This document shows positions 1-32,223 of a DNA stretch of 64,000 bases, piece by piece. Where the stretch lies: IMG/VR virus record IMGVR_UViG_3300009678_001576. The stretch is one strand, 5' to 3'. This DNA comes from a virus. Position 1 is the stretch's first letter, and each line of letters opens with the position of its first letter. The notes beneath the pieces were generated by a model. It was not told where the DNA came from and did not search any database. It worked only from the letters and a program-made list of their open reading frames with translations. The translations under genes and the position numbers were made by a program.

Positions 1-243
1 GAACAATTTTCTAGTTTCTGAAGCAGTATCTGCAATGCGCAAAACTGGACGAGTTGCAGCAGAAGAGCCATCAGCAACGTAACCGTCAAGGACGTCAAAA
101 GCCGCCTTTTCAGTTGAGCTATTAACACGAACTGCCTCATCTAAAGTTCCTAACATGCCGCCAAGTAATAGCGACAAATCAGTTTCTAGAAAATCAAACT
201 GACCAATAGGTTGTACACCTGGTTGTAATAGATATAATGCCAT
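1..243 (-). CDS. Partial CDS running off the window edge; putative head decoration-like protein (MALYLLQPGVQPIGQFDFLETD...)
   Basis: Not in the ORF track. ATG at 243-241, GGAGG at 252-256, open for 81 codons to position 1. The N-terminus loosely resembles 6755..7447. It lies downstream of a candidate late promoter. Confidence 0.7.
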   Translation of the reverse strand, partial: MALYLLQPGVQPIGQFDFLETDLSLLLGGMLGTLDEAVRVNSSTEKAAFDVLDGYVADGSSAATRPVLRIADTASETRKLF

Positions 244-343
244 TATTTTATCCTCCGATAAAAGTTATTTTTATATTATGAGGATAATTCTCTTAGCAAA
301 ACATAGTTCGGCGTAGAGAACAACCTTTCAACTATATATATTA

Positions 344-354
344 TTATTAGTAGA
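344..354 (-). promoter_or_regulatory. Candidate phage late promoter motif TCTACTAATAA
   Basis: One of five intergenic minus-strand copies of TCTAYYAATAW found by eye. Confidence 0.5.
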
Positions 355-358
355 TCTT

Positions 359-2026
359 TTAGTACTCTTTCATCATTTCGTTTAGTTTTAGAAGGTCATT
401 ATATGAAATAACCGCCCCAGAAGCCGGATTTACCAATAAATTAATCATTTTAGTGTCGCCAGTCTTCCTATAATACTCATTTTCGAGTCTTTTCAGGGCA
501 TCTATGGTTGCCGAGTCTAATTTACCAGTCGTAGGTATATTTAAGAAGCTTTGGATTTTGGGTAGATCGCCACCAGTAATTGCCTGGTCTAAATCAACTC
601 CAGGTATCTTAACACCAGTCTTTAGCCCTAAGTCTATAGTTTTTTTGCTAAAATCTTCTGCCAAAGCCATTAAGTCTCGTCCTAATTGCTGGGCTTTAGC
701 TGGATCATTACTATTAGATACGACCACATCCCAGCGACTAAGGCTATTAATGATATTTGATACCTCATTCGATAATTGAGGCAGCTTATCTTGAACCGTA
801 GCAGGATTATCACCAAATTCATGTGATAGCTCAGCACTTAAAGTCTGAATTTTAGCCAAAGAGGCATTTACGCTATCGAATATTGGCTTGCCTTCGCCAC
901 CTACCTCTAGACTATTAACTTGAGCCGCCAATCTAGATGCATCTGAAGTTAATTGTTCTGGTGGATTGTCAGAGAACCAATTTAGAAGTCCGACAGCACC
1001 GACTGTTGATGCGCCTACGGCAGCTAAAGGTAATTTAAACTTTTGAGCTATTTCTTGCGGAGTAAGTCCTAATTTTTCTCTGGCTTTAACATCTGCTTTC
1101 ATTTTGCCAATAAGTTCACGAATTTTTGGACTTGGGCTTAAGCCAGGGGTCTCTAATTCTCTTATATAAGCTAAATTCTTTGGATTCTTAAGCCAAGATT
1201 CTTTAATAGGTGAGCCGTCGCCTAAACTTAATATGCGACCGTACTCTTTGATAAATCGTTTAGGGGCATCGAGATTTTGACTAGTAAGTTGTCCGGATAA
1301 TACTTGGTCTGAAATCTTTTTAACTTCATTCTTTATATTTCCATACCAACTAGTGAGGTCTTGCAATTCGGTCAATAGCGATTTGTCCATACCAGCAAAT
1401 TCAGCATTAAGATTATCTAAGTATTTGGTGGCAGCAACTATACCATCTTGTTGTAATATGTTATTTAACTCGTCCGTTTTCTTTTGTAGCGATCGTACGT
1501 AATCAAGTTTTTTGGCATTGTCAGCGCTTCTTTTTAGAAGGTCGTCCATTACGCCGCCATGGGTCATGCGGTCTCGTTGAATATCACTTAATTCCTTTTT
1601 CATTTTGTCTGACATCTTTTTAGAATTAACCAATATTCTTTCTCGTTGCGATAAGCTTTCTTCTAGTTCTTTAGCCTGTTGGAGTCTTTTGGTAAACATT
1701 CCACCAGCTTCGCCTAAGTTAGTTTCACTTCTTTTCAACTGTGACATCTGTTTAGTTATCTTGTCTCTGAATGGAGCAAGCTTTTCTCCAATAGACATTT
1801 GCATCGATTTAGGAGATTTTGCTAGTAGTTCGAATATATCATCGGTGGAATTGTCCCAACTATTAACAAGTTTCATAGCTTCTTGTGGAGGCATATAACC
1901 TCTCCACCATTTGCTGATGTTTGTTCCAGCAGATTCGCCAAGTTCGCCCAGCATTTTACCGGCCTTGGGAGCTATTTCCTCGACAGCCTTCATAATTTTA
2001 GGCCCGAGTTTCCCCAACCAGCCCAA
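359..2026 (-). CDS. Coiled-coil virion protein with a hydrophobic segment and a C-terminal peptidoglycan-binding-like motif; probably the C-terminal part of a -1 frameshift fusion with 2062..2511
   Basis: Has only a TTG start with no suitably spaced SD. The frame is open upstream to 2101. PG-binding-like LPKIQSFLNIPTTGKLDSATIDALKRLE at ~485-570 and hydrophobic LPLAAVGASTVGAVGLLNWF. Confidence 0.7.
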   Translation of the reverse strand: MGWLGKLGPKIMKAVEEIAPKAGKMLGELGESAGTNISKWWRGYMPPQEAMKLVNSWDNSTDDIFELLAKSPKSMQMSIGEKLAPFRDKITKQMSQLKRSETNLGEAGGMFTKRLQQAKELEESLSQRERILVNSKKMSDKMKKELSDIQRDRMTHGGVMDDLLKRSADNAKKLDYVRSLQKKTDELNNILQQDGIVAATKYLDNLNAEFAGMDKSLLTELQDLTSWYGNIKNEVKKISDQVLSGQLTSQNLDAPKRFIKEYGRILSLGDGSPIKESWLKNPKNLAYIRELETPGLSPSPKIRELIGKMKADVKAREKLGLTPQEIAQKFKLPLAAVGASTVGAVGLLNWFSDNPPEQLTSDASRLAAQVNSLEVGGEGKPIFDSVNASLAKIQTLSAELSHEFGDNPATVQDKLPQLSNEVSNIINSLSRWDVVVSNSNDPAKAQQLGRDLMALAEDFSKKTIDLGLKTGVKIPGVDLDQAITGGDLPKIQSFLNIPTTGKLDSATIDALKRLENEYYRKTGDTKMINLLVNPASGAVISYNDLLKLNEMMKEY

Positions 2027-2061
2027 AGGTATAGCTGTTTTATGTAAGGGACTTACCTCGT

Positions 2062-2511
2062 TTATTCGACGAGAGCCCCGTCGAAAGGGAGTTTCTCTAC
2101 ATCATCCAATAATTTTGTAGCAGCATCGGTAAGTAATTCTGCAGCTTTGTCTTCTCCATTAGCATCACAAGCATCAGCCATTTTAATTAAAGCACCAATT
2201 GCTGTAGCATAACGATGAACTAATGAGCCAGTGGGCATCTTATTTATGATTTCTATCATCTTCTTTTGATTTTCAATTTCGTTTTCTACAAGAGCGCCAT
2301 CGCCCTGGGATTCGGCAATATATACTGGTTCTGGGTGAGCAAGTTCCATAATATTCTTTTCAGGAGTCTTTAGACGTTTCTCTTCGATAGTTTTCTTATC
2401 TTCTTGGTAGGGATTTGGCGCAGGAGCAGCAGTCTTCTTTAATCCAAGAAGGTCGCCATCCTTAGCAATTTTAGCAAATTCCACCATAACATCAGAATTA
2501 TTCCAATCCAT
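2062..2511 (-). CDS. Scaffold-like leader protein (NSDVMVEFAKI leader, AHP..VE motif, helical tag)
   Basis: ORF track 149 aa; shares motifs with 5442..6230, 3110..4756 and the scaffold C-terminal region. Confidence 0.85.
   Translation of the reverse strand: MDWNNSDVMVEFAKIAKDGDLLGLKKTAAPAPNPYQEDKKTIEEKRLKTPEKNIMELAHPEPVYIAESQGDGALVENEIENQKKMIEIINKMPTGSLVHRYATAIGALIKMADACDANGEDKAAELLTDAATKLLDDVEKLPFDGALVE
2083..2089 (-). promoter_or_regulatory. Candidate -1 frameshift heptamer C CCT TTC
   Basis: Zero-frame CCT TTC re-pairs to CCC TTT, which is the frame of 359..2026. A downstream bulged stem GGGGC-T-CTCGT/ACGAG-GTAA-GTCCC can form. Confidence 0.6.
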
Positions 2512-2513
2512 AA

Positions 2514-3110
2514 TTAGCTCCTATTTTTATCTAGATTACCTAGTAGGTCAACAATATCACCCATATTTTGACCCTGAAACATTTCTTGAACGGCCTCTTG
2601 TCCAACTTCCTTAACCTTTTCTTTAGCGATTCCCTTTACCTTGTTATATATGTCGCCCGTACTAGAAGCCCCAAGTGCCATAGCAATAAACGCAAATGCT
2701 CTTAATATAAGACTTGTTATCATCTTGGCGAGCTTACCTGGGCCGCCGAATAGTCTAAAAATACCACCTAGGCCGGCAACCTTAATCATCTGTCCATTAT
2801 TATCTAATGCAGCTTTAGCCTCTAGCATACCCATAAACAAGTTATTTAGGTTATCAGCATCTTGCGGCGTAACATCACTCTTGGGACCTTTACCTAATTT
2901 CTTATCTAGCCAGGCACCAAAATCTTCTATGCCATAACCAAACCAAGAAGCAAATTTATCGATTAAGGTAAGTAATAGTCCACCAAATCCGGCAAATAAT
3001 ACAGGAGAATAGCTAATGAGCCTGAATAGATTTTCAAAAGGCCCTTCGCTGTCTCGCCATACAACCGAAACTGCTTTCAGTAAATCAGTGTTATCAGCTT
3101 GTCGTTTCAT
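2514..3110 (-). CDS. Hypothetical membrane-associated virion protein
   Basis: 198 aa with two hydrophobic segments (VLFAGFGGLLLTLI; ITSLILRAFAFIAMALGA) and an internal MIKVA motif. Confidence 0.8.
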   Translation of the reverse strand: MKRQADNTDLLKAVSVVWRDSEGPFENLFRLISYSPVLFAGFGGLLLTLIDKFASWFGYGIEDFGAWLDKKLGKGPKSDVTPQDADNLNNLFMGMLEAKAALDNNGQMIKVAGLGGIFRLFGGPGKLAKMITSLILRAFAFIAMALGASSTGDIYNKVKGIAKEKVKEVGQEAVQEMFQGQNMGDIVDLLGNLDKNRS

Positions 3111-4756
3111 TAGAATGAATAGCGCCCTTCTTTAAAATCGTCAGCAATTTCAGACCAACTCCAGTCTCTAGGTGCGCGTGCTCTATACTTTCTATAAATA
3201 TATTCACGCATAGCTTGTTCCGACATTCCCCTATCTTGTAGAAACATATATAAACTAACTTCGCGGCCCGACTTTGGATCGTTCATTATTATTGAGCGCA
3301 AACAAGCAGAAACTTCTTCTGGACTTGGATTCGCTTTGTTAGGATTACACATTACACCTTGAGTGGGGTCTTGTTGTGTTTGTAAATTAGCAGGTGCAGC
3401 AGTACCATCAGCAGAAACTACTTTCTGTAAATAAGAATACAATACCCTTACAGCATCGCTTACATTCTCAGGATTAGACATAACTTTAAAATCTACTATA
3501 GATTTTTCGTCTAAACCAGCATATTTTCTCAAATAGTCATCAAGCTCTGGAGATTTAGCAACCAAACCTGTAAATGCAGCAGCTGTATTAACACCATAAG
3601 CACCGTCTTCCTCTATTCTATCGATACCGGTTTTAAGTGCTATGTTAAGTCGATTTATCAATCTTTGTAAGAGCGTTACTTGTGGATTTTTACCAACCCT
3701 GCCACGAGTTGCACCAGGGGCCGCAGCAGATGGTGGTTCACTGGAGGTTCTAAATGCTCTCTTGGAAATATAAGGTTTGGCGCTAGCAGGCCTATTTCGT
3801 GATGGCTTTGCTTGTTGTTTTGCTTCCATTCTCTGTAAGCTATTTCTCATGCGATCTCGTAGAGCAACCATAGGAGTTACATACTGATTTATTTCTTCTT
3901 CAGTTGCTGATTCATTGATTACCTTATTTACGAAATTTCGCACAACCCTTTCGTCTATGTCGGTTTTTTCATAAATTGGCTTTTCACCAGATTGTTGTAC
4001 TCTGGCCTCAAGAGCGATAATATCCTTTGCTACATCTACCAAATCAACACCAGTTGCTTGACCCTTTTGGGCAATTAATTGTTGAGCAGCTTGTTGTGCT
4101 CGTTGTTTGATATCAGCAAGTTGCTGATTTATAGCAGCAGTAGTTTTAGTTAGAGCGTTTTCAAATTGTGTAATATCTCTTTCGTAAAAAGGATCTGTTA
4201 GCAAAGGCTTAACCTGCGGCCAAGTAAGAGCCATTTGATTCAAGTAAGTAGCTACTCTTTCAATATTTCCTAATTGTTGTCTAGCTTGATTTACGACTTC
4301 GCCAGGCTTATTTGGATCAGGAGCCATCTGTACTTGAAAATATGGAAGAAAGCTAGCAAGGTCCGTCTTCCACTTTTCAACTACGCTTTGAGCATCAGTA
4401 TCTTCATAATCTAGAGCTTCGATTCTTTCTAATAAATCCTTAACCCTATTGTCTGCGAGTCTAGTTCCCTGATAAATAGCAAACGCTACACCACCGGCTA
4501 ATAGTACCCATCCTATAGGGCCACCGGCGATTGCAGCTGCTGCACCAGCTGTTCCAGTTGCCGCGCCCGCACCAGTTAATCCACCGGCAACGCCAAAATA
4601 ACCTAAACCACCCATGAGCCCAACATCTGTTAAGGCAGTTAGACCAAGGCTGTTTGCGACATCTCCCCAGTCCCATGCTTCTTTTATCATAGGAGAGGAG
4701 TAGCCCATTATCTTGGCGTATTCCATCATTATTTCGCTATTTTCAAATTGAGACAT
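3110..4756 (-). CDS. Putative ejection or internal virion protein with a glycine-rich hydrophobic region and a peptidoglycan-binding-like domain
   Basis: NSEIMMEYAKI leader, MIKEA, Gly/Ala hydrophobic stretch at ~4470-4660, ISKRA at 3755-3769, PG-binding-like VTLLQRLIN..EEDGAYGVNTAAA at ~3575-3685. Confidence 0.75.
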   Translation of the reverse strand: MSQFENSEIMMEYAKIMGYSSPMIKEAWDWGDVANSLGLTALTDVGLMGGLGYFGVAGGLTGAGAATGTAGAAAAIAGGPIGWVLLAGGVAFAIYQGTRLADNRVKDLLERIEALDYEDTDAQSVVEKWKTDLASFLPYFQVQMAPDPNKPGEVVNQARQQLGNIERVATYLNQMALTWPQVKPLLTDPFYERDITQFENALTKTTAAINQQLADIKQRAQQAAQQLIAQKGQATGVDLVDVAKDIIALEARVQQSGEKPIYEKTDIDERVVRNFVNKVINESATEEEINQYVTPMVALRDRMRNSLQRMEAKQQAKPSRNRPASAKPYISKRAFRTSSEPPSAAAPGATRGRVGKNPQVTLLQRLINRLNIALKTGIDRIEEDGAYGVNTAAAFTGLVAKSPELDDYLRKYAGLDEKSIVDFKVMSNPENVSDAVRVLYSYLQKVVSADGTAAPANLQTQQDPTQGVMCNPNKANPSPEEVSACLRSIIMNDPKSGREVSLYMFLQDRGMSEQAMREYIYRKYRARAPRDWSWSEIADDFKEGRYSF

Positions 4757-5403
4757 TATCCAGCCCTTAGACTACGCACCACTTCTGGTGTTAGATTTGA
4801 ACGTAAGTTTTGTAATGCAATATTTCTTATATATTCGTCTCTGCTCTTATCATCTCTGAATTGAGTATTGCCAACATCAGCTACAGCTCTATCAACTTCC
4901 TGTTTCATTAACTGTTTTAATTGTGAAATGGCATTTACAGGAAGCTCTCGTACATTCTTAACTCCCATCATTTGCATAGCATGTGGGAATAAACTTAATT
5001 GAACTTGTTGTTTTACTGGCGCCCATAAATCGCCTCTTGGTGCAGCTGGCGCAGGAGCTTGTTGTTGGCCAGGCATCGGAGGCATTTCTCTATTTGCAGG
5101 TGTTGCTGGTTGCTTAGCAGCTTGCATTTGTTGATAAGCAGCCTTAGTAGCTGGGCCCCACACACCATCATCTTTTAAATAACCAGGCATTCCTGGCTTA
5201 AAACCGTGCTGTCTATTATATCTTCGTTGCCAATTTTGAACTGCTGTAGTCCCGCCGCGACCTAATCCAGTTTGTGCTGGTTTTTGGGTCTGTGGTGTTG
5301 CTGGTTGCACGGATTGTCGTGGCTCATATTCTGTTCCAGTAGGAACTGACATTGAAGCACCACTCGGATCTGTCATACCCACATCTTCACCAGGATAAGA
5401 CAT
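4756..5403 (-). CDS. Peptidoglycan-binding domain protein; probably the C-terminal part of a -1 fusion with 5442..6230
   Basis: VQNWQRRYN..LKDDGVWGPATKAA matches the PG_binding_1 pattern. The frame is open upstream through the A10 run. Confidence 0.75.
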   Translation of the reverse strand: MSYPGEDVGMTDPSGASMSVPTGTEYEPRQSVQPATPQTQKPAQTGLGRGGTTAVQNWQRRYNRQHGFKPGMPGYLKDDGVWGPATKAAYQQMQAAKQPATPANREMPPMPGQQQAPAPAAPRGDLWAPVKQQVQLSLFPHAMQMMGVKNVRELPVNAISQLKQLMKQEVDRAVADVGNTQFRDDKSRDEYIRNIALQNLRSNLTPEVVRSLRAG

Positions 5404-5441
5404 GCCGTATTCAGCACCCGCAGGCGGCTCCTCCGCAACAA

Positions 5442-6230
5442 CTATTCTTTTTTTTTTAACAGGTTATCCACCTGATTAGCATATTTCTTATAGCCTAACC
5501 TATCAAGGTCATCAGCCAATACAACTAAAACGTGGTTTAATACGTCTTCTGGAGTAGCAACCGCACGTATAATTTCCTTTAGACCATCTAATTTGTCTTT
5601 GTGGCCCATCTTGGCAAGCTTGGTATAAAGATTAACCATCGAAGCATATGTTCCCTTTGGCATTTTCTTAACAACCTCAAGGTCAGCCTTTTGTTGTTCA
5701 ACGATAGTCTCTACTAAATTATCTTTAGTTTTGCTATGAGTTAGCTCAGTTTTGGTTCCGCCACCTGGGTGTGCTTGGTTTACCAAGTCTTCACCAGTTT
5801 CGCCGGTGACATCATATTCTTTGCCTTCTTTGGCAGCCGTAACTACTTCATCACCCTCTACGCTGTTTCTTGATGGTGGCAATTGAGCAACCATAGTCTC
5901 AGCTTCTCCGGCATATTGTGGAGCTAGTAGCTTTGAGACTTGTACTTTGAACGCTGCTATTTCATTAGGATTTTTTGGAAATCGCCTAGAAAGATTAGCG
6001 ACACTTTGATTTATATGCTGATCTAATTCCTTTTTAGCTCGTTGATAGTCGCCCTTATATTTTTCCATTAACTTAGCAGAGAGTTCGTTCAATCGAACAG
6101 CCTCATCATATAAAGGATTTGCGGCCTCTTTTGTCATTTCATCGGAAGCAACTTTGACCAATCCCTGCTCCTGTGCTATACGAGCAAACTCTTTCAACAC
6201 AGTGCTCTCATCGAATTTTATATTTCTCAT
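5442..6230 (-). CDS. Scaffold-like leader protein (ESTVLKEFARI leader, AHPGG..VET motif, C-terminal helical tag)
   Basis: ORF track 262 aa with SD GGAGA; shares motifs with 2062..2511 and the scaffold. Confidence 0.85.
   Translation of the reverse strand: MRNIKFDESTVLKEFARIAQEQGLVKVASDEMTKEAANPLYDEAVRLNELSAKLMEKYKGDYQRAKKELDQHINQSVANLSRRFPKNPNEIAAFKVQVSKLLAPQYAGEAETMVAQLPPSRNSVEGDEVVTAAKEGKEYDVTGETGEDLVNQAHPGGGTKTELTHSKTKDNLVETIVEQQKADLEVVKKMPKGTYASMVNLYTKLAKMGHKDKLDGLKEIIRAVATPEDVLNHVLVVLADDLDRLGYKKYANQVDNLLKKKE
5448..5457 (-). promoter_or_regulatory. Candidate -1 frameshift or transcriptional slippage site (A10 run)
   Basis: TTA AAA AAA AAA GAA TAG. The -1 frame reads KKKRIVVAEEPPAGAEYG into the ATG at 5403. 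An SD-like AGGTG lies 11 nt upstream (5469-5473). Confidence 0.6.
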
Positions 6231-6242
6231 AGCAATCTCCTG

Positions 6243-6743
6243 TTATTTCTTCTCTGAAATATTTTCTTTCTTAAGTAGCGTCCCTTGCTCGGCAGCAACT
6301 TTAATATTTTTAGCGGCTTGTTCAATTATAAATGCAGTTTCGTGGTCGCCGTGGGCACCAGCAAAATATGCGATACTTTCTAATTTACTAATTACTTTTT
6401 CAGCAAGTTCCATTTGTGAATCCACAACTGGCTCTATTTGCGTTTCTTTCACTTCCTCAGCTTTAACTTCAGGAACTACAACTTCGGCGGTCTTGGCTTC
6501 TAGTAAGTCACCAGGAATTTTAGTCCCTTTTAAAGTGGCAAGTAATACCGAAACGCACTCTAGCATTTGATTTGGATCAGAATAATTATTAGCTACTTGA
6601 ATACCTTTTTCTATGAAGGCATCACAATCTGCCTTGGATAACAATTTGCTGGATACAATTCTATCACGCTCATCGTTAATAAGCGATAAGAATGATTTAA
6701 CAACAAATTGTCGGTCTCCCAAAAGCTCTTCTCTAATACTCAT
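6243..6743 (-). CDS. Hypothetical head-module protein with a divergent helical tag
   Basis: 166 aa, SD GGAGA; KLESIAYFAGAHGDHETAFIIE resembles the shared helix. Confidence 0.8.
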   Translation of the reverse strand: MSIREELLGDRQFVVKSFLSLINDERDRIVSSKLLSKADCDAFIEKGIQVANNYSDPNQMLECVSVLLATLKGTKIPGDLLEAKTAEVVVPEVKAEEVKETQIEPVVDSQMELAEKVISKLESIAYFAGAHGDHETAFIIEQAAKNIKVAAEQGTLLKKENISEKK

Positions 6744-9660: not shown

Positions 9661-12600
9661 TTACTTCCAGCCCAATGAGCCTAGTTGGTCAACTAAACTA
9701 GATTCTGGGGATGGATTTGCACTTGCAGTAGCGGTCATAGCAGCTGAAGCAGCTTCTAGACCAACTCGTGGAAGGGTTCCGCCCTTCTTTGCGGTTGACT
9801 TGTAGTTTGCAACCACGCGCTTATTTGATTCAAACGCTGCATCATCAAAATGCATGATTTCATCAACATAAGTGTCAAGTGAATCACGAGTGCCGGATAT
9901 TAGTCCTTTTTCTTGAGCCTGTATGGCAATGTCATAAGCTCTTCGTAACTTGAGCTTATAGTTATTGTCAGATGCTTCTTTCTTGCCCTTAGCAAATTCC
10001 TTGCTTAAGTCCGCACCAAAGCTTCCGGCTTGTGGAGCCTGTGCGAAATATTTCTTCCAATAGGCAGCAGCAGCGCTGTCGACTTTGCCTTCTGCAACTA
10101 GTCTCTCAACGTCTTCTGCTTTTACAGCACCTTCAACAATCTTTTCCTGAAGTACGGCTGCGGCTTCACGAACATTACGTGGGCCTGATTCAGCAACGTC
10201 TCTCATTACTTCATGAACTTCAGAAATAGTTTCAACCTTGGCTTCTTGGGTCTTTGTGCTAGTTAGTTCAGTCACAGTTCCCTTTCCACCTGGATGAGCC
10301 TGGAAGTAAGTTGGCTCGGTAGCATTTTGTGCTTTACCTAGGTCCAACTCATATTTACCAAGTACGCCTTCAGCACGAGCAACTAAAGCCTCGCGAGCTG
10401 TTTTGCGTGATGCAACTACTGGAGCGCCTGGAGCCATTCCGGCACCAGCAGCCATTGGGTCAGCAGCCATCATGCAATCTTGAGCATGACCTTCTGGACC
10501 ACAAGCACACATTTCTGGTGCAACGTCTGCCATCATAGCATCATCTTCTTTGTCTTCCTTCTCATCCTCTTCTTCGCCCTCTTCGACTTCGACATCTTCC
10601 TCGTCGTCATCATCCTTTTTCTTGTCTTTAGCCATATCTGCAGCTAAATCAGGATGCATTTTCCCACCTTCTGGGCTCATCTCGGACTTTTCATCCTGCA
10701 AGAGCTTCTTTAGGTCATCTTCAGTCTTTGGATCAAGGGCCAAGTCGGCATCCTCACCATACATACCCATTGCCGCCTTTAATAAAGCTGCGCGATTTTG
10801 TGCGCGAACCTTAAGGGCGTCGTCGAGTAGTTTTTGAGCTTCCGCTTTCTTGTCATCTTTATCTTCTTTCTTGTCCTTCTTGTCTTCCTTTTCTTTCTTC
10901 TCAGCCTTTTCCTCTTTCTTATCTTTCTTGTCGGCCTTCTCTTCTTTGTCTTCTTTCTTATCTTTCTTAGCCTTAGCAGCTTCGATAACTATATTAGCTT
11001 CGGTTAGGACTACGTCGCTATCTGCCAATACATCGGCAGCAGCCTTTAACAACTTATCCTTATTTCCAGCTTCTACTTTATCTAGACCTTCTAGGGTTTC
11101 GCTAACTAATGCAAGTTCATCAGCAGCGTCATTCAATAGTGACTCTACCTTAAGAGCATCTTCACGGAATGATAGAACTTTATCCATTGGGCCCTTTTCG
11201 CCGACATTAACATCAACGTCAACTAAGCCCGAGCCCTCTTTGCCTAATAGGTCACGGAGTTCTGCAATTTTTTCTTCCATTGTGCTTAATGCAGCGTTTA
11301 CTTTTTCAAGATTCACGCCCTCAGCCTTTGGAGCTTCTGCTGGTGCAGCCGCTGGTGCTGGAGGAGGAAGTTCTGCTGCTGGAGCAGGTGCCGCTGGGGC
11401 TGCAGCTTCTGGAGCTGCTGGCATCATTGGGTCTTGTGCGCCCTTCAATAGATATGCTACTTGATCAAAACCTTCTGTACGGATCATCTTAAGAACGTCT
11501 GAACCGTATTGCTTTGAACTAAAGTAATCCCAGTTGTCGTCTAGTTCGTCTTCATAAACTTCGGAACCAGCCGCGCTTAAGATTAATTGGTCGCCAGCGT
11601 AGATGTCCCAACGGGATGCATCTTTTACTAGATTGCCCTTTTGGTCTGCTACTTTAACGAGCTTGGCTCGTAATTTGGCACGTAGCAATTTCTTCTTAAC
11701 TTCCATATCGCCAGGAAATGCGCCATCAGTTCCGCCCATATTGTCGGGGGCCTGCATGTGCTTGTCCTCGTTATTGCGAATCTTATCTGCTTCTTCCTTT
11801 GGATACTTTACTTTGCCTGGGGTCGGTTCATTTAAACCGCCACCACCGAGCCAATAGGCTCTGCGTTTCATTCTACGGTCTTCGAGTTCGGCTGTAGTAA
11901 GACCATCTTGGTTTTCCTCAGCACGTAACAATTTCTTCTTAACTTCTTCGTCACCCGGATGCAGACCTTCGCTACCTGTCTCTAATGGTTCGCCAACCAT
12001 TTGCTTATCTTCACTGTCGCGAATAGAATCGGCATCCTCTTTTTCGTATTTTGGCTTACCTGGGGTTGGTTCATTAACACCACCACCGCCAAGCCAATAT
12101 GCGCGTCGAGCTTTCGCTCTTGCGCGTAGTCTCGCTGAATTCATATTGTTCTCCTCCTTAGAGATTAATGTTTTGAGCTCATTAAAAGCATTGTTCATAT
12201 TTTTTACTTTATTGCGAAGGAGGCTTAACTCTTGTGAGAGTGCATCCTGGGTTAGGTTTTCGCCTCCTACTTTCTGGCTAGCAAATCTTTGAGGAACTTC
12301 TGTCTCAAAGGGCGGCCAACCAACTTTACCGCTATCGTTTTCTAGAGATTGCTTTTCATAGCCTTCTCCACCACCGATAGTGGCTCGTGCGTCATTTGCG
12401 GCAGCAACTGGGGCCGCTTCAGGTGCTGGAACTGGGACAGGAGCCGCTGGTTCCATTAATTCAGATTCACCTAATAGTAATTCTTTAATCTGTGCTTTAA
12501 TCTTTGCTACTTCTTCTTTAGCATTTGGGTCAGTTTCTAAAGCCTTGAGAGCAGCAACTAACTCGCCCAAGTCAGCATTATTAGCAGTCGCGGCCTTATT

Positions 12601-13497
12601 CATTCCCATCAAACCGCCAATTCTCTTTTGCATTTCAGCAACAGAATCAGACAATTGTTGTAATTCAGTTGGATTTACACAACGATCAGCCTTCAATTGT
12701 TCGATACGTGCAGTTTTTTCCTGAACATATTGATCCATGCTGGCAATAACGTTTCTAATTTTAGCGAGACCGTCGGCGCCATTAACAACCAAACTCAATT
12801 CAATTGGGTTTAAGTCCAAGTTAATTTCGCCATAGTGTGAGCGGCTCTTGATGCAATTGCAATATTCTTTTTCAACTGCGGCAACATTGGAACATTCAGT
12901 GCAAACTGAACGACCAACGGCAGTCCCCATTGATACACAATTAGCATAACCGGTTTCTACTTTACGAGCTAGGTCCGCATAATTCTTGCGATCTAATGCA
13001 AAAAGCGCATGAACGCGCTTAAATTTAGGATCATAATAAGTATCTATAACAATGCCACGAATACCATCTACGCTATCAGACTTGTGGTCTTTGCAAAGAG
13101 GTTTGCCTACCCATTTCTTGTAAGCTTTTAACAATTCAGCTTCTGGGAATATATCACCATTAGCATTTTTATAGGGCTTAACGTCATCGGGAGATATCCA
13201 CTTAACTGATTCTCGCCCGCCTTTAATCTTTATCGTTTCAAAATAACCTTTAGATGGCTCACCCTTCTTATTCTTTACGGGTTCGCCAGTTTCCTGATTG
13301 ACTAGGGATGCTTCGGCGGCATGCATCATAACCGCATGACCGTATAGGAAATCTTCAGCCTTTGGGGCAATTCTCTTTAGAGTTTTGGCCATCTTCACAA
13401 AACGTTTAGCTATTTCTAAATCAGCTAATGCTTCTTTGGGTTGAAGTATATTTTCTTCGGAGAATGAAAGATTCTCACCAAACTTATTAATCGCCAT
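9661..13497 (-). CDS. Prohead maturation protease fused to scaffolding protein
   Basis: The N-terminal ~250 aa carry NANGDIF..EL, KDH (His), VSMG (Ser), GEINLDL..IELSLV..AD, the pattern of caudoviral or herpes-fold prohead proteases. The remainder is charged, Pro/Ala-rich coiled coil. Confidence 0.85.
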   Translation of the reverse strand: MAINKFGENLSFSEENILQPKEALADLEIAKRFVKMAKTLKRIAPKAEDFLYGHAVMMHAAEASLVNQETGEPVKNKKGEPSKGYFETIKIKGGRESVKWISPDDVKPYKNANGDIFPEAELLKAYKKWVGKPLCKDHKSDSVDGIRGIVIDTYYDPKFKRVHALFALDRKNYADLARKVETGYANCVSMGTAVGRSVCTECSNVAAVEKEYCNCIKSRSHYGEINLDLNPIELSLVVNGADGLAKIRNVIASMDQYVQEKTARIEQLKADRCVNPTELQQLSDSVAEMQKRIGGLMGMNKAATANNADLGELVAALKALETDPNAKEEVAKIKAQIKELLLGESELMEPAAPVPVPAPEAAPVAAANDARATIGGGEGYEKQSLENDSGKVGWPPFETEVPQRFASQKVGGENLTQDALSQELSLLRNKVKNMNNAFNELKTLISKEENNMNSARLRARAKARRAYWLGGGGVNEPTPGKPKYEKEDADSIRDSEDKQMVGEPLETGSEGLHPGDEEVKKKLLRAEENQDGLTTAELEDRRMKRRAYWLGGGGLNEPTPGKVKYPKEEADKIRNNEDKHMQAPDNMGGTDGAFPGDMEVKKKLLRAKLRAKLVKVADQKGNLVKDASRWDIYAGDQLILSAAGSEVYEDELDDNWDYFSSKQYGSDVLKMIRTEGFDQVAYLLKGAQDPMMPAAPEAAAPAAPAPAAELPPPAPAAAPAEAPKAEGVNLEKVNAALSTMEEKIAELRDLLGKEGSGLVDVDVNVGEKGPMDKVLSFREDALKVESLLNDAADELALVSETLEGLDKVEAGNKDKLLKAAADVLADSDVVLTEANIVIEAAKAKKDKKEDKEEKADKKDKKEEKAEKKEKEDKKDKKEDKDDKKAEAQKLLDDALKVRAQNRAALLKAAMGMYGEDADLALDPKTEDDLKKLLQDEKSEMSPEGGKMHPDLAADMAKDKKKDDDDEEDVEVEEGEEEDEKEDKEDDAMMADVAPEMCACGPEGHAQDCMMAADPMAAGAGMAPGAPVVASRKTAREALVARAEGVLGKYELDLGKAQNATEPTYFQAHPGGKGTVTELTSTKTQEAKVETISEVHEVMRDVAESGPRNVREAAAVLQEKIVEGAVKAEDVERLVAEGKVDSAAAAYWKKYFAQAPQAGSFGADLSKEFAKGKKEASDNNYKLKLRRAYDIAIQAQEKGLISGTRDSLDTYVDEIMHFDDAAFESNKRVVANYKSTAKKGGTLPRVGLEAASAAMTATASANPSPESSLVDQLGSLGWK
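11677..12108 (-). repeat. Two 63-aa internal repeats in the scaffold (RRAYWLGGGG.NEPTPGK...PGD.EVKKKLLRA)
   Basis: Copies at 11920-12108 and 11677-11865, each 189 nt. Confidence 0.9.
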
Positions 13498-28362: not shown

Positions 28363-30375
28363 TTAGCCTACCGGTGCTGCTGGAGGCGCGGCTGGAGGAG
28401 GTGCTCCGCCCGGTGCTGGTGGCGCTCCTGGTGCTGGAGGACCGCCTAATCCGCCGCCTGGGGGTCCGCCAAGACCTAATTCGCCACCTGGGGGCCCGCC
28501 AAGGCCTCCCATTTCGGGTCCGCCCATCGGAGGGCCACCAAGACCCATTCCGCCGCCTGGAGGGCCACCCAAACCACCACCCAGGCCACCGCCAAGGCCC
28601 ATATCCATTCCTGGCATTCCACTACCCGGCATTCCTGATTCTTCTGAGCCTGGCACACCTGGCAGAGGAGCTTCCGTAGGTTCTATTATATCTTCTTCTG
28701 GCTTTAGAGCACGTAAAGCACCAAGCGACATGCGCATCATTAGTTGTTGTTCTTTTTGTGCTATAGCCTTTTGAATCATTTCTTCTTTTATCTTATATCG
28801 TTCTTCTTCTATGCTCAAGCCCAAACTTCTGAATAGAGTGCTTTGAGATACTAAACCATTTTGTACCAAACCTTGTACAACATTAATATAATTATCCATA
28901 TCAAATAGAATCATTTGATTCCAATCAATCTCTGGAACAATTAATTTTTTAACACCATCTTTATATTCGTAAAATTCGTGTATTTCGCTAATAGGAGCAA
29001 ATATCTTTTTAATTAACCACTGGGATACCATATTTCTAAAGGATTCATATCTCTGTTTTAATACCTCTAAGCCAATAGATGCGCTATTGAAAGATGCGCC
29101 CTCTTGAGTTAGAACAGATTTTGGAACCATTAGACCATATAGGATATTGTCTAAAATAAAATTCATATCGCCACTAATGTCTATGATAGCACCAGAAGCG
29201 CCGACACGTTCAATTTTAACACCGGCGTGACTAATTATTTTAAAATCTTTATCGTATTGAGCTGATTCGAAAGTTTGGCGCCATTTTTCTAGGTCACCGT
29301 CGGTTGGATGGTATTCACCTTCGCCCGAACCGCCAACGCTAATAACAGTTATCGGATTTACGAGATTATCTGCTTGGGCAAATTTTGATTCACGTAGCTT
29401 ATCATATAACATCAAGTCTTTGTATATGCTAACTATAACTGATGTTCCGTGTGAATCAGATGGCGAAGATAACATTTTAAGATGACTAACATTAAAATTA
29501 TCTAATGGTATATTATTGCCTCTACGGACATTATTAATTATTTCTGGGTCTAACTGACTACGCAATTGAATATCATTGGGATTATTGCTTTGTACTAACT
29601 TTAATAACTTTGGGTCAGGCTTGAGGGTAATAATGTCAGCCCCGCCGGCCATTGCTGATCTTTGAACATAGACATAATCTGGATTCAATATATCAATGTA
29701 TTTCCACATACCTCTAGCATCATCGAGCATAGCATAAGGAAAAGCTTCACCTATTTTCCAAAATTCTAGAGCGAGTGTCTGAAGCACACCGGACAGATCC
29801 ATCTCTTCTGCCATATCTGTAAAAAATTGTTGTACCTTTTGGTCTTTGCACTTAATATTTATTTTACCAATAGGATATGTTGCATGAAGATTTATACAAT
29901 TATGCACTAGAGGATGGGTATCATAAAAGTTTCTGTTCCACGCATTCATAGTAATGCGATCGCGAGGCAATTGTAAGTTGGCTATTTGAAATAGTGGCGA
30001 ATAAACTTCAGGCGCTTGACGAACTGTATTGGCTCCACCAGAACCTAAGAAGTTAGAGGAAGATGAGCCGACTGATGCCGTCTTATTTATTTCTTGAGAA
30101 TATTTATAGGATGGACTATATACGATTTGTGGAGCAGCCAATTTACTGATATTCTTTTGACTTTCGGTTCCTCTTATTAGTTCTTGTCTAACTTCGGAGA
30201 CCCCAGCGGCAGCAGTCACTTCTTGTGCACGGCCTGCTCTATTAGCCATAAATCCGGAAGAATGAGACTCGGCACTTGCTGGCATTGCAGCTGGTCTAGC
30301 ACCATGGCGACCTGTCTTTACGGTCGCTGTTTTGTTAAAAGTTGATGGCTGCCAATCGCCTCTACGTATTCCCAT
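28363..30375 (-). CDS. Portal protein
   Basis: Directly downstream of TerL; helical core with FYDTHPLV, KIGEAF, ILNPDYV; Gly/Pro/Met-rich C-terminal tail. Confidence 0.85.
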   Translation of the reverse strand: MGIRRGDWQPSTFNKTATVKTGRHGARPAAMPASAESHSSGFMANRAGRAQEVTAAAGVSEVRQELIRGTESQKNISKLAAPQIVYSPSYKYSQEINKTASVGSSSSNFLGSGGANTVRQAPEVYSPLFQIANLQLPRDRITMNAWNRNFYDTHPLVHNCINLHATYPIGKINIKCKDQKVQQFFTDMAEEMDLSGVLQTLALEFWKIGEAFPYAMLDDARGMWKYIDILNPDYVYVQRSAMAGGADIITLKPDPKLLKLVQSNNPNDIQLRSQLDPEIINNVRRGNNIPLDNFNVSHLKMLSSPSDSHGTSVIVSIYKDLMLYDKLRESKFAQADNLVNPITVISVGGSGEGEYHPTDGDLEKWRQTFESAQYDKDFKIISHAGVKIERVGASGAIIDISGDMNFILDNILYGLMVPKSVLTQEGASFNSASIGLEVLKQRYESFRNMVSQWLIKKIFAPISEIHEFYEYKDGVKKLIVPEIDWNQMILFDMDNYINVVQGLVQNGLVSQSTLFRSLGLSIEEERYKIKEEMIQKAIAQKEQQLMMRMSLGALRALKPEEDIIEPTEAPLPGVPGSEESGMPGSGMPGMDMGLGGGLGGGLGGPPGGGMGLGGPPMGGPEMGGLGGPPGGELGLGGPPGGGLGGPPAPGAPPAPGGAPPPAAPPAAPVG

Positions 30376-30384
30376 AATAATTCC

Positions 30385-32223
30385 TTACATCCTTGGTAAA
30401 TGTGCCAATATAGGAGCATTAACAGACGCCTTCCCTTGCAAGTGTGGTTTTATATTAAACCCCTTGGTCTGATAAAACTTATATGCCAAATAAGCATACA
30501 TCAAGGCCATAAGTCCGTCATTAGGACTGTTGCCTTTTATGTATCTTGTAATTATTTGTCCTTGCACCGATCGTTCTTCTTTTTCCATAGAGCAACAATG
30601 CTCTATTAACCAGTGTATTCTTTCGAAACTTAGCCATGGAAAAAGAACTTTGCTTCTTCGCATGAGCTTAAAAATATCATCTAAAACTACATGTGGATTA
30701 CAAATTAAACGAATATCATCTTCATCGTATTTATAAGGATTAACTAAACTACCGCTGTTTAAACAGCCAAGAAGTCTAGTGCTATATTCCTTTTGCAATT
30801 CTGGAACAATATCATTTCCGTAGCCTAAGTCGGCCACTGATATTCTAATGTTAAAGCGTCTATACATTTCTGCTATAACTTCTTTCTTGTGTTCCATATC
30901 ATTGCTTTTTAGTTTAAAAGCATTTTCTATTCGTAGTGTGCCAGAGGAATCGGCAGAAATCACAACTATAGAAGAGTATGATTTTCCGGCTGTAGAGGTA
31001 GAATTATCTGCTTTTCCGCCCCAGTCGATTCCCATAAACGTTGGTTGTGCTTCGCTTTTTAGAAAGCCAGAAGCAAGACTTCTATTTGGGTCTTTACAAA
31101 ATTTGCGAATTTCTTCTTCAGACATAGGTAAGTCGGCGCCGCTATAGAATTCGCCCAAAATTTCATTCTTCCAAACACGGTCAGAGTTAGTGGCGTGGTC
31201 ACCTGGCTTTTCCTTCAATACAGTTTCTTTTGTAAAATAAGGAATTAGTAATTGATTAAAATGAAAGCCTACATACAGCGGCTCTTCGCCGTTATCTCTC
31301 TTATGCTTGGTTGGTATCCATTTGCCATTTTCTATAGCATTTACTTTTTCTTGCTGATGCTTGCAGTGTGGGCATTCAACCGTATTACCATATAACCAAA
31401 CTTTCTCCCAATCATCAGTACCCGGAGTATAAAGTTTAAAATGCTGTTTGCATGCCTCACAGCCCAAATGATAAAGCCTTTGGTCCGAGTCCTCCCACAT
31501 CTTATGAAAGTAGGATCCTCTTTGCAAAGGCGTTCCGAAATACAATTGGATCCCACTACCTCGGGGCCCATATTTAGCTGCGGTTAAAGTTCTATTACTA
31601 TTACCAATATCGTCTTGGTGCATATGCTGAACTTCATCATAAAATATACCATCAACGGTCATACCTTGAAGTCTAGAAGCATCGTTAGCATTTGAATCAA
31701 CCAATAAACGATTTTCATACTTAAATTGTTTATTGGTTAGAGTGTCATCTGGTACGTCGAGTCTGCGTTTGCCCGATTTTTCATCATAACCCAAAGACTG
31801 CTTCATTACGTAATTATCAGTTGAAGTACGCATCATTGTACTTAATTTGTCTTTGGCGAAGTTTTGTACCTGAGCTAAAGCAGGAAAGCAGTGTAGGATT
31901 CTAATCGGTGGCTTATCAGGAGAAACGCCAAATAGGCCGCTGGATGTAAAATATAATTCAAGGGCCGCCGCCATTGTGGTAGCACCGACCTGACGTCCTT
32001 TAACACAAACAACTGGCTTACCATCTGGCTCAAGTGCCTTAACAGCAACATATCGATATATATCAGCAAGAAACTTCCAACCAGTATCACTTAATTTAAG
32101 TGGTTTTCCATCAATCGTTAAATAGTTCTCAGCAAAAGATACGGGGTCTATCTTTAAAACTTCTTTTTTGAGATCGTCAAAAAGCTTATCGCTGCTTGAA
32201 AGCGTGTTGTTTCGCCCCGCCAT
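30385..32223 (-). CDS. Terminase large subunit
   Basis: KGRQVGAT (Walker A-like), IFYDEVQ (Walker B), GTP coupling motif, nuclease MGIDWG / VADLG / NDGLMA; CEAC..CPHC insert. Confidence 0.92.
   Translation of the reverse strand: MAGRNNTLSSSDKLFDDLKKEVLKIDPVSFAENYLTIDGKPLKLSDTGWKFLADIYRYVAVKALEPDGKPVVCVKGRQVGATTMAAALELYFTSSGLFGVSPDKPPIRILHCFPALAQVQNFAKDKLSTMMRTSTDNYVMKQSLGYDEKSGKRRLDVPDDTLTNKQFKYENRLLVDSNANDASRLQGMTVDGIFYDEVQHMHQDDIGNSNRTLTAAKYGPRGSGIQLYFGTPLQRGSYFHKMWEDSDQRLYHLGCEACKQHFKLYTPGTDDWEKVWLYGNTVECPHCKHQQEKVNAIENGKWIPTKHKRDNGEEPLYVGFHFNQLLIPYFTKETVLKEKPGDHATNSDRVWKNEILGEFYSGADLPMSEEEIRKFCKDPNRSLASGFLKSEAQPTFMGIDWGGKADNSTSTAGKSYSSIVVISADSSGTLRIENAFKLKSNDMEHKKEVIAEMYRRFNIRISVADLGYGNDIVPELQKEYSTRLLGCLNSGSLVNPYKYDEDDIRLICNPHVVLDDIFKLMRRSKVLFPWLSFERIHWLIEHCCSMEKEERSVQGQIITRYIKGNSPNDGLMALMYAYLAYKFYQTKGFNIKPHLQGKASVNAPILAHLPRM

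Follow-up and report, generated by a model that had tools for sequence, protein, structure and literature searches.

In the double-stranded DNA (dsDNA) tailed phage lambda, the tail chaperone pair G/GT is produced through a −1 ribosomal frameshift, for which an X XXY YYZ heptamer is located close to the 3' end of an open reading frame (ORF) of ~140 amino acids (aa). Two products arise at a fixed ratio, an abundant short one and, less often, one with a C-terminal extension, and the position of the shift is conserved across very diverse phages (Levin, Hendrix and Casjens 1993; Xu, Hendrix and Duda 2004, both as cited in the recoding review PMC5009743). Here we describe a comparable locus at positions 359 to 2,511 of a 64,000-nucleotide stretch of viral DNA (IMG/VR record IMGVR_UViG_3300009678_001576; the whole stretch is hereafter termed the window), in which a 149-aa leader ORF overlaps a long ORF in the −1 frame that encodes a large helical protein, termed the cargo. 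Based on comparison with relatives, we propose, with a probability of roughly 0.88, that a 717-aa leader-cargo fusion is made by −1 programmed ribosomal frameshifting at the heptamer at 2089-2083. An earlier note on this DNA, made from the window sequence only, had likened the site to the frameshifts of tail chaperones and T7 gene 10; the likeness holds for the mechanism, whereas the gene belongs to neither family.

Several features set this locus apart from lambda G/GT. The lambda heptamer is G GGA AAG, compared to C CCT TTC here, the extension is 574 aa instead of ~140 aa, and the present site is followed by a covarying hairpin. Neither the leader nor the −1 ORF has a Pfam or PHROG match to tail chaperones, the tape-measure signal being just a weak helical similarity. 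In addition, the pair lies between protease/scaffold-like genes and the major head protein, whereas that of lambda lies between the tail tube and the tape measure. A tail chaperone of the G/GT type was ruled out by the wrong module and the lack of homology. The 10A/10B gene of phage T7 also shifts to the −1 frame near the end of a head gene and gives a minor extended product; however, T7 extends its major capsid protein by ~50 residues, whereas the present site would append a large separate protein to a scaffold-like leader, and the two genes are not homologous.

In the E. coli dnaX gene (tau/gamma) and the orfAB genes of the insertion sequences IS3/IS911, a −1 frameshift likewise depends on a heptamer and a hairpin or pseudoknot 5-8 nt downstream. 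They use A_AA.A_AA.G, compared to C_CC.U_UU.Y or U_UU.U_UU.Y here, and belong to unrelated gene families; moreover, no conserved Shine-Dalgarno (SD)-like stimulator was seen upstream of the present heptamer. The Gag-Pol and Gag-Pro-Pol systems of retroviruses, Ty and L-A totivirus share the heptamer, the spacer and the downstream structure. Their logic may also be shared, in that an assembly module is made in excess, a minority fusion carries the cargo into the capsid and a protease separates the two. This resemblance is functional only and involves no homology, as the cargo here is a helical, peptidoglycan-binding-like protein of a dsDNA phage and not a polymerase. The capsid-targeting sequence of phage T4 and its gp21-processed internal proteins IPI-III offer a further parallel, namely a short N-terminal motif common to head-module genes (xxSxxMxEFxKIA...L-x-K-x-A here), with the L-x-K-x-A motif at leader/cargo boundaries; T4, however, has L/I-x-E in place of L-x-K-x-A and uses no frameshifting for targeting. 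The 2016 recoding review (PMC5009743) mentions no scaffold or prohead frameshift, and none was found in a full-text literature search.

The slippery cassette and the predicted fused reading frame

All genes of the window lie on the minus strand, and the features below are given on that strand. The leader ORF (2062..2511), which is supported by homologs, runs from ATG 2511 to TAA 2064-2062 and ends with the codons GAG AAA CTC CCT TTC GAC GGG GCT CTC GTC GAA TAA. The heptamer C CCT TTC (2083..2089) has the zero-frame X XXY YYZ phase, in which re-pairing would change CCU to CCC in the P site and UUC to UUU in the A site. A 5-nt spacer, GACGG (2078..2082), whose length is constant in the two-ORF forms, separates the heptamer from the conserved GGC that opens a predicted hairpin. 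As predicted from sequence, the heptamer, 5-nt spacer and hairpin together form a classical −1 frameshift cassette of the bacterial type.

Beyond a TGA at 2104-2102, the −1 frame meets no stop from 2101 until that at 361-359, which gives a long ORF that overlaps the leader end and lacks conserved initiation signals. A shift after TTC would give a 717-aa product composed of 143 zero-frame residues and 574 residues in the −1 frame, with a junction that reads ..KLPF-RRGSRRINEVSPLHKTA-IPLGWLGKLG. The trans-frame bridge RRGSRRINEVSPLHKTA comprises 17 residues, from CGA 2083-2081 to GCT 2035-2033 (2033..2083); it is homologous to the junction of fused relatives and ends in PLHKTA, a P-L-x-K-x-A motif at 2050-2033. 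The cargo follows with 557 aa from IPLGW.. to the stop (359..2032) and is defined by its ORF and a family of homologs, without a conserved start of its own. Translation and codon reading of the minus strand reproduced exactly what the earlier note had given for the phase of the heptamer, the extent of the open frame, the junction and the length of the fusion.

The window's own 19,602 in-frame codon positions were used to estimate chance expectation. Any in-phase X XXY YYZ would be expected in the 13-codon overlap with a probability of ~10%, and a heptamer of the H_HH.U_UU.Y class with a probability of ~0.5%; the window sequence by itself is therefore only suggestive of frameshifting, and the comparative data carry the case. 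In E. coli, H_HH.U_UU.Y heptamers are among the most efficient classes, and C_CC.U_UU.C gives "high level frameshifting" (Sharma et al., PMC4066793).

Two-frame, fused and separate-gene relatives

The two-ORF set comprises 13 relatives with DNA, i.e. 14 sequences including the window: L001, L002 and eleven further relatives drawn from IMG/VR, ENA, Logan, JGI and NCBI assemblies. They come from independent assemblies of different metagenomes and share 44-88% identity in the leader; both leader and cargo are under purifying selection. No match was found among GenBank phages, either by blastn with window positions 1-6500 or by tblastn with the cargo and with the leader. A pattern scan of IMG/VR found no cargo relative, while leader relatives are present there. 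A degenerate DNA pattern, CCCTTT..GGTAAGYCC, proved too unspecific, as it hit at least 118 loci that are mostly unrelated; among the matches listed, one was a new family member (L152).

An in-phase heptamer followed by a −1 ORF of 520-600 aa is present in all 13 two-ORF relatives with DNA. The heptamer is C CCT TTC in the window, L001, L002, L004, L005, L010 and L036; C CCT TTT in L009; C CCT TTA in L006, L028 and L032; T TTT TTC in L003 and L026; and T TTT TTA in L034. The preceding codon varies in its amino acid but throughout keeps its wobble base, which is C or, before TTT, T. The conservation of heptamer and phase, a check put forward in the earlier note, thus came out in favor of the site. 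The assembly indel that the note had feared is very improbable, since the same layout recurs in at least three independent assemblies of close relatives and in 13 relatives in all.

The leader homologs, 83 in number and mostly 138-156 aa long, carry the same imprint at the protein level. In 78 of them, PF, PL, FF or FL stands at the C-terminus with 0-9 further residues behind it, and the five exceptions include two fragments and two split genes with their own starts. Before the proline, the residues K, E, Q, M and W occur in none of 59 P[FL] sites, compared to 32% over the 11 preceding residues; their absence fits the heptamer because these residues cannot supply the required C-ending codon.

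In some relatives, leader and cargo form one in-frame ORF, as in L007 (652 aa), L008 (754 aa) and L155 (801 aa), and this architecture is found in five separate 50%-identity clusters (P0114, P0124, P0140, P0142 and P0161). The fused junction, PF-D-x-G-T...(E)VSPLxKxA (e.g. LPFDSGTRVQDGEVSPLYKEA), aligns residue for residue with the trans-frame peptide of the window, LPFRRGSRRINEVSPLHKTA, and the DNA of fused and two-ORF forms differs by a single extra spacer base (6 versus 5 nt). This match between a contiguous junction and a trans-frame peptide shows the leader-cargo fusion to be, on the grounds of homology, a biologically meaningful product.

The fused genes also keep an in-phase C CCT TTT and the covarying hairpin at a 6-nt spacing (L007:4396-4451, L008:4396-4451 and L155 ~1894-1950). 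The −1 frame stops at once (CCC TTT TGA) in all three, an observation that, given the preference for the Phe codon TTT, is statistically not compelling. A −1 shift at C CCT TTT GA in L007, L008 and L155 would bring the ribosome to an immediate stop and give a free leader, as in dnaX. The cassette may be used in two polarities, with two-ORF genomes shifting to make the long form and fused genomes shifting to make the short form.

Only two relatives, L030 and L035, lack the heptamer; in both, the (L)YK(E/Q)A motif is immediately preceded by an ATG with a strong SD, so that the cargo is a separate gene. In L030 the signal reads AAGGAG..TAA ATG (MVKLPDEPLYKEA..) at L030:2915-2990, and in L035 it reads GGGGGTGAT..ATG (MYKQA..) at L035:3190-3260, where the SD is homologous to the conserved GAGGTAAG of the frameshift forms. 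The relatives have either the slip site or normal initiation signals, each being found where the other is missing. L030 and L035 are relatives with independent starts and no heptamer, which the earlier note would have counted against frameshifting; here the loss of the heptamer coincides with the gain of an SD and ATG, as a real frameshift predicts. The cluster representatives P0102, P0120, P0122 and P0123 have the same MV(K/R)LPDE..K-E-A start.

The predicted stimulatory hairpin (2050..2077), supported by folding and covariation, is given here in the register shared by the family. GGC (2077-2075) and UCUCGU (2074-2069) pair with ACGAGG (2061-2056) and, across a UAA bulge (2055-2053), with GUC (2052-2050); the zero-frame stop TAA of the leader sits in the loop (2068-2062). 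In the window, the stem is lengthened by two more G-C pairs, to 2079/2048. The earlier note had placed a bulged stem 3 nt after the heptamer. Such a stem does exist in the window, where the fold has a minimum free energy of −15.3 kcal/mol (z = −3.1 versus shuffles), whereas the family-wide register begins 5 nt after the heptamer and folds at −13.1 kcal/mol. The spacer is exactly 5 nt in 14/14 two-ORF sequences and 6 nt in the in-frame fused forms. It is followed by an invariant GGC, a variable 5' arm, a loop of variable length, a complementary 3' arm ending in GG, a (U/C/A)AA bulge and G(Y/G)C.

Unguided RNAalifold recovers the same helices. On a MAFFT alignment, 87.1% of the cells are paired, compared to 76.6 ± 1.7% in shuffles (0/500), and the covariation score is 0.396 compared to 0.210 (0/500), the shuffles in both cases ignoring phylogeny. 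A separate pairing count gave 80% versus 63% (0/5000), and sliding the partner to other registers left 22-59% of the cells paired. Compensatory changes on both sides are found in four of the six inner pairs, e.g. from C-G to U-A in 7/16 sequences. No Rfam family matches positions 1800-2300. The nonamer (G/A)GGTAAG(T/C)CC (window 2051-2059), which encodes (E/R)-V-S-P, is nearly invariant in all architectures, including its third codon positions, and part of it constitutes the 3' side of the hairpin (the bulge and the closing GYC).

Independent initiation and other alternatives

The best surviving alternative, which we nevertheless consider improbable, involves no recoding: the 555-aa ORF would be an ordinary gene initiated at TTG 2026, TTG 2017 or ATG 1993, and the heptamer would be a coincidence. 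Such in-frame start codons do exist, gene callers have used them in databases, and L030 and L035 do use independent starts. The earlier note had stated that the ORF has only a TTG and no well-spaced SD; the poor SD is borne out for all three codons, whereas the TTG is not the sole candidate, since TTG 2017 and ATG 1993 are also in frame. The SD pairing energies are +1.2 kcal/mol for TTG 2026, −2.4 kcal/mol for TTG 2017 and −3.3 kcal/mol for ATG 1993, compared to a median of −5.9 kcal/mol over 48 window genes, which places them among the weakest 2-12%. Between TGA 2104-2102 and TTG 2026, the −1 frame contains no ATG, GTG or TTG.

Two close cargo homologs, L001 (83% aa identity) and L002 (61%), bear most directly on this alternative. 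They both carry C CCT TTC in the same phase, preceded by a codon that varies among CTC (Leu), GTC (Val) and GGC (Gly) when the window is included, and neither has a stop in the −1 frame between the heptamer and the cargo. The supposed intergenic stretch of L001 has a 3-nt insertion that preserves the frame. The peptide IPLGWL(G/E)(K/R)LGP(K/R)I is kept through many synonymous changes, though it lies upstream of the first canonical start of L001. None of the candidate starts is conserved: TTG 2026 is replaced by CTT/CTC in relatives, TTG 2017 by CTT/CTG and ATG 1993 by TTT in L002, whereas the TTG of L002 itself is CTC in the window. A peptide maintained by synonymous changes, together with the loss of every candidate start in some relative, argues that the stretch upstream of these codons is translated in the −1 frame, which no shared initiation codon can explain. 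Nor would an ordinary gene account for the heptamer and its phase in 13/13 two-ORF relatives, or for a bridge homologous to in-frame fusions.

Still less probable is termination-reinitiation after TAA 2064-2062, with GAGG (2059-2056) as the SD and TTA 2047 (ATA in L002) as a non-canonical start codon. GAGGT would pair with the anti-SD at −7.2 kcal/mol and is at the right distance from TTA 2047; moreover, the homologous GGGGGTGAT of L035 serves as the SD for an ATG at that very position. Across the family, however, this position holds TTA, CTA, CTC, CTT, CTG or ATA, most of which are not known initiators. The residues RRGS...NE upstream of TTA 2047 are homologous to the fused forms, and reinitiation gives no account of the in-phase heptamer, the constant 5-nt spacer or the wobble-base bias.

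Transcriptional slippage, by which RNA polymerase would add or drop a base to give an in-frame mRNA, is more improbable again at this site. The T6-T7 runs of some relatives (T TTT TTC) would suit it, and it is plausible at a paralogous A10 run (5457-5448); however, the window and most relatives have only C3T3, and a polymerase needs a longer run to slip productively. Ribosomal frameshifting, by contrast, has its signatures in the X XXY YYZ phase, the 5-nt spacer and the downstream hairpin. It is hardly credible that one fused gene was split by a single-base error of assembly or sequencing, or by a mutation that inactivated it recently. Although the in-frame fused relatives differ by just one spacer base, 13 independently assembled relatives have the same layout, the C-terminus is truncated alike in ~78 further leader homologs, and both parts are under purifying selection. 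Stop-codon readthrough was ruled out because the two ORFs are in different frames. Taken together, the four alternatives above retain a small share of the probability; they are disfavored because none accounts at once for a heptamer conserved in phase, a spacer of fixed length, the bias at the wobble base and a junction homologous to that of fused forms.

A number of points weigh against frameshifting at 2089-2083 or its necessity. The in-frame codons at 2026 (TTG), 2017 (TTG) and 1993 (ATG) leave room for some independent initiation, and L030 and L035 make the cargo from its own start, so that fusion is not obligatory for cargo function. In the cluster representatives P0094 and P0131, the −1 frame has an ATG that precedes the slip site by a few codons (MQGFEAPFNRGT.. 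and MFRLPPFRQGT.., respectively), and overlapping independent initiation may occur in some such lineages. The hairpin is short (7-9 bp plus the bulge) and both of its arms are coding, so that protein constraint could explain part of its conservation; in addition, the shuffle control for pairing is uncorrected for phylogeny. Nucleotide identity between the window and L002 rises locally to 0.84 over the cassette, a peak that does not exceed the values of the most conserved protein blocks. The window heptamer belongs to the H_HH.U_UU.Y class, whose efficiency ranking is that of E. coli and may not carry over to the host of this phage and its tRNA pool.

The head module and a possible dosing of the cargo

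The window is part of a 468-kb contig. Its other genes include the large terminase (30385-32223, minus strand), the portal (28363-30375, minus strand), a 2962-aa giant ORF, a 1278-aa ORF (9661..13497) with a protease-like N-terminus, Pol III alpha and trigger factor, which identifies the source as an uncultured huge phage. The major head protein of L002 (phrog_2522, E = 1e-78) is encoded three genes downstream of the frameshift pair; by this position, the gene is assigned to the head module and not to the tail chaperones.

Beyond sub-threshold tape-measure and weak PG_binding_1 matches, no Pfam or PHROG family was found for either the leader or the cargo. The AlphaFold2 model of the leader is helical, with a predicted local distance difference test score (pLDDT) of 72. 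The models of leader and cargo have no significant fold match in PDB or BFVD, the only look-alikes being long helices of tape measure, minor tail and internal virion proteins (E > 0.008). Within the window, the leader is a paralog of a 262-aa ORF at 5442-6230 (E = 7e-7). Its profile (A3) also matches the C-terminal 83 residues of a 765-aa protein of L015, with a probability of 98.5% and E = 1.7e-15 (hhalign against the last 199 aa). The gene for this protein, like that for its 1353-aa counterpart in L021, occupies the classical position of a scaffold, since the major head protein (phrog_2522, E ~1e-72 to 1e-78) is encoded two genes further downstream. Large proteins (460-1390 aa) of L015 (3986-4237), L016, L017, L018, L020 and L021 (4001-4147) have the AHPE..GDGGLVEN..PTG module of the leader at their very C-terminus. 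The gene position in L015 and L021 suggests that this is a scaffold module that binds the capsid protein. Weighing against such an origin, no match to the leader profile was found in the last 279 aa of the 1278-aa protease/scaffold-like protein of the window. The reuse of a scaffold motif is hence supported through relatives, by the L015 profile match, but not in the window's own protein.

The cargo is a long, all-helical protein (AlphaFold2 pLDDT 81) with a hydrophobic segment and a weak PG_binding_1-like region at the C-terminus (4/43 members). Its family comprises 78 clusters, and the N-termini of their representatives begin at different, non-homologous positions. The P-L-x-K-x-A motif at the junction is kept in all three architectures, and the independent starts lie just upstream of it; the K-x-A site (LHKTA) pointed out in the earlier note is thereby conserved family-wide as L-x-K-x-A. 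We regard this motif as a putative prohead-protease site. A shared N-terminal motif, xxSxxMxE(F/Y)A(K/R)I.., opens the 149-, 548- and 262-aa ORFs of the window (2433-2511, 4676-4756 and 6147-6230, respectively). In each, it is followed by an L/M-x-K-x-A site, namely LLGLKKTA in the 149-aa ORF, SPMIKEA in the 548-aa ORF and GLVKVA / MTKEA in the 262-aa ORF. The combination in three ORFs looks like a cleavable targeting leader, and we infer from these motifs that the cargo is directed to the capsid by the leader, which is subsequently removed by cleavage.

A second candidate site is an A10 run at 5457-5448 (window 5442-5460, minus strand), which concerns the ORFs 5442..6230 and 4756..5403. The 262-aa paralog ends ..CTG TTA AAA AAA AAA GAA TAG, and a −1 shift in the A run would read RIVVAEEPPAGAEYG into ATG 5403, giving a 491-aa fusion. 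The homologous region of L002 is one continuous 436-aa ORF (..LLKKKVIAENP..), which aligns with the trans-frame ..LLKKKRIVVAEEP.. of the window. The A10 run is either a second recoding site, by ribosomal or transcriptional slippage, or a homopolymer assembly error; the paralogous pair of 262 aa and 215 aa may thus use a second frameshift site.

In the mechanism that we propose for the leader and cargo, ribosomes translating the leader ORF would arrive at C CCU UUC, where the P site would hold tRNA-Pro paired to CCU and the A site tRNA-Phe paired to UUC. The bulged hairpin 5 nt downstream, with the zero-frame stop in its loop, would impede translocation, and a fraction of the ribosomes would slip back by one base to pair with CCC UUU, reading on in the −1 frame from CGA CGG GGC.... 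These would bypass the TAA and make the 717-aa fusion, consisting of leader residues 1-143, the 17-residue bridge ending in PLHKTA and the 557-residue cargo, whereas unshifted ribosomes would terminate six codons later and release the free 149-aa leader. The site would thereby fix the ratio of free leader to leader-cargo fusion, and in this phage the cargo most likely has no other source than the frameshift. As a scaffold-derived module, the leader would bring the cargo into the prohead, where the head protease would cut after L-x-K-x-A and release a helical, peptidoglycan-binding internal or ejection protein that starts with IPLGW.

More tentatively, and at somewhat less than even odds, these features may be those of a tailed-phage lineage with a strategy like that of Gag/Gag-Pol. 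A scaffold-derived leader would be made in excess and a set fraction of it fused by −1 frameshifting to a large internal or ejection protein, so that the cargo is dosed into the prohead and freed by the head protease at L-x-K-x-A. What is new here is the frameshift device in a new gene context, which was previously unannotated. Gene callers have split the gene in every database entry seen and given the cargo arbitrary starts; once the site is recognized, the proteome can be corrected for a clade of uncultured huge phages that is widespread. It also adds a well-supported −1 frameshift family outside tail chaperones, insertion sequence elements and dnaX, with C_CC.U_UU.Y / U_UU.U_UU.Y heptamers and a compact bulged hairpin. 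The three interchangeable architectures (frameshift, in-frame fusion and separate genes) form a natural experiment on leader:cargo stoichiometry, and let the rise and loss of frameshift sites by single-base spacer indels be studied. If the leader does target the capsid, Gag-Pol-like dosing would occur in tailed phages, which would bear on how huge phages load their internal and ejection proteins.

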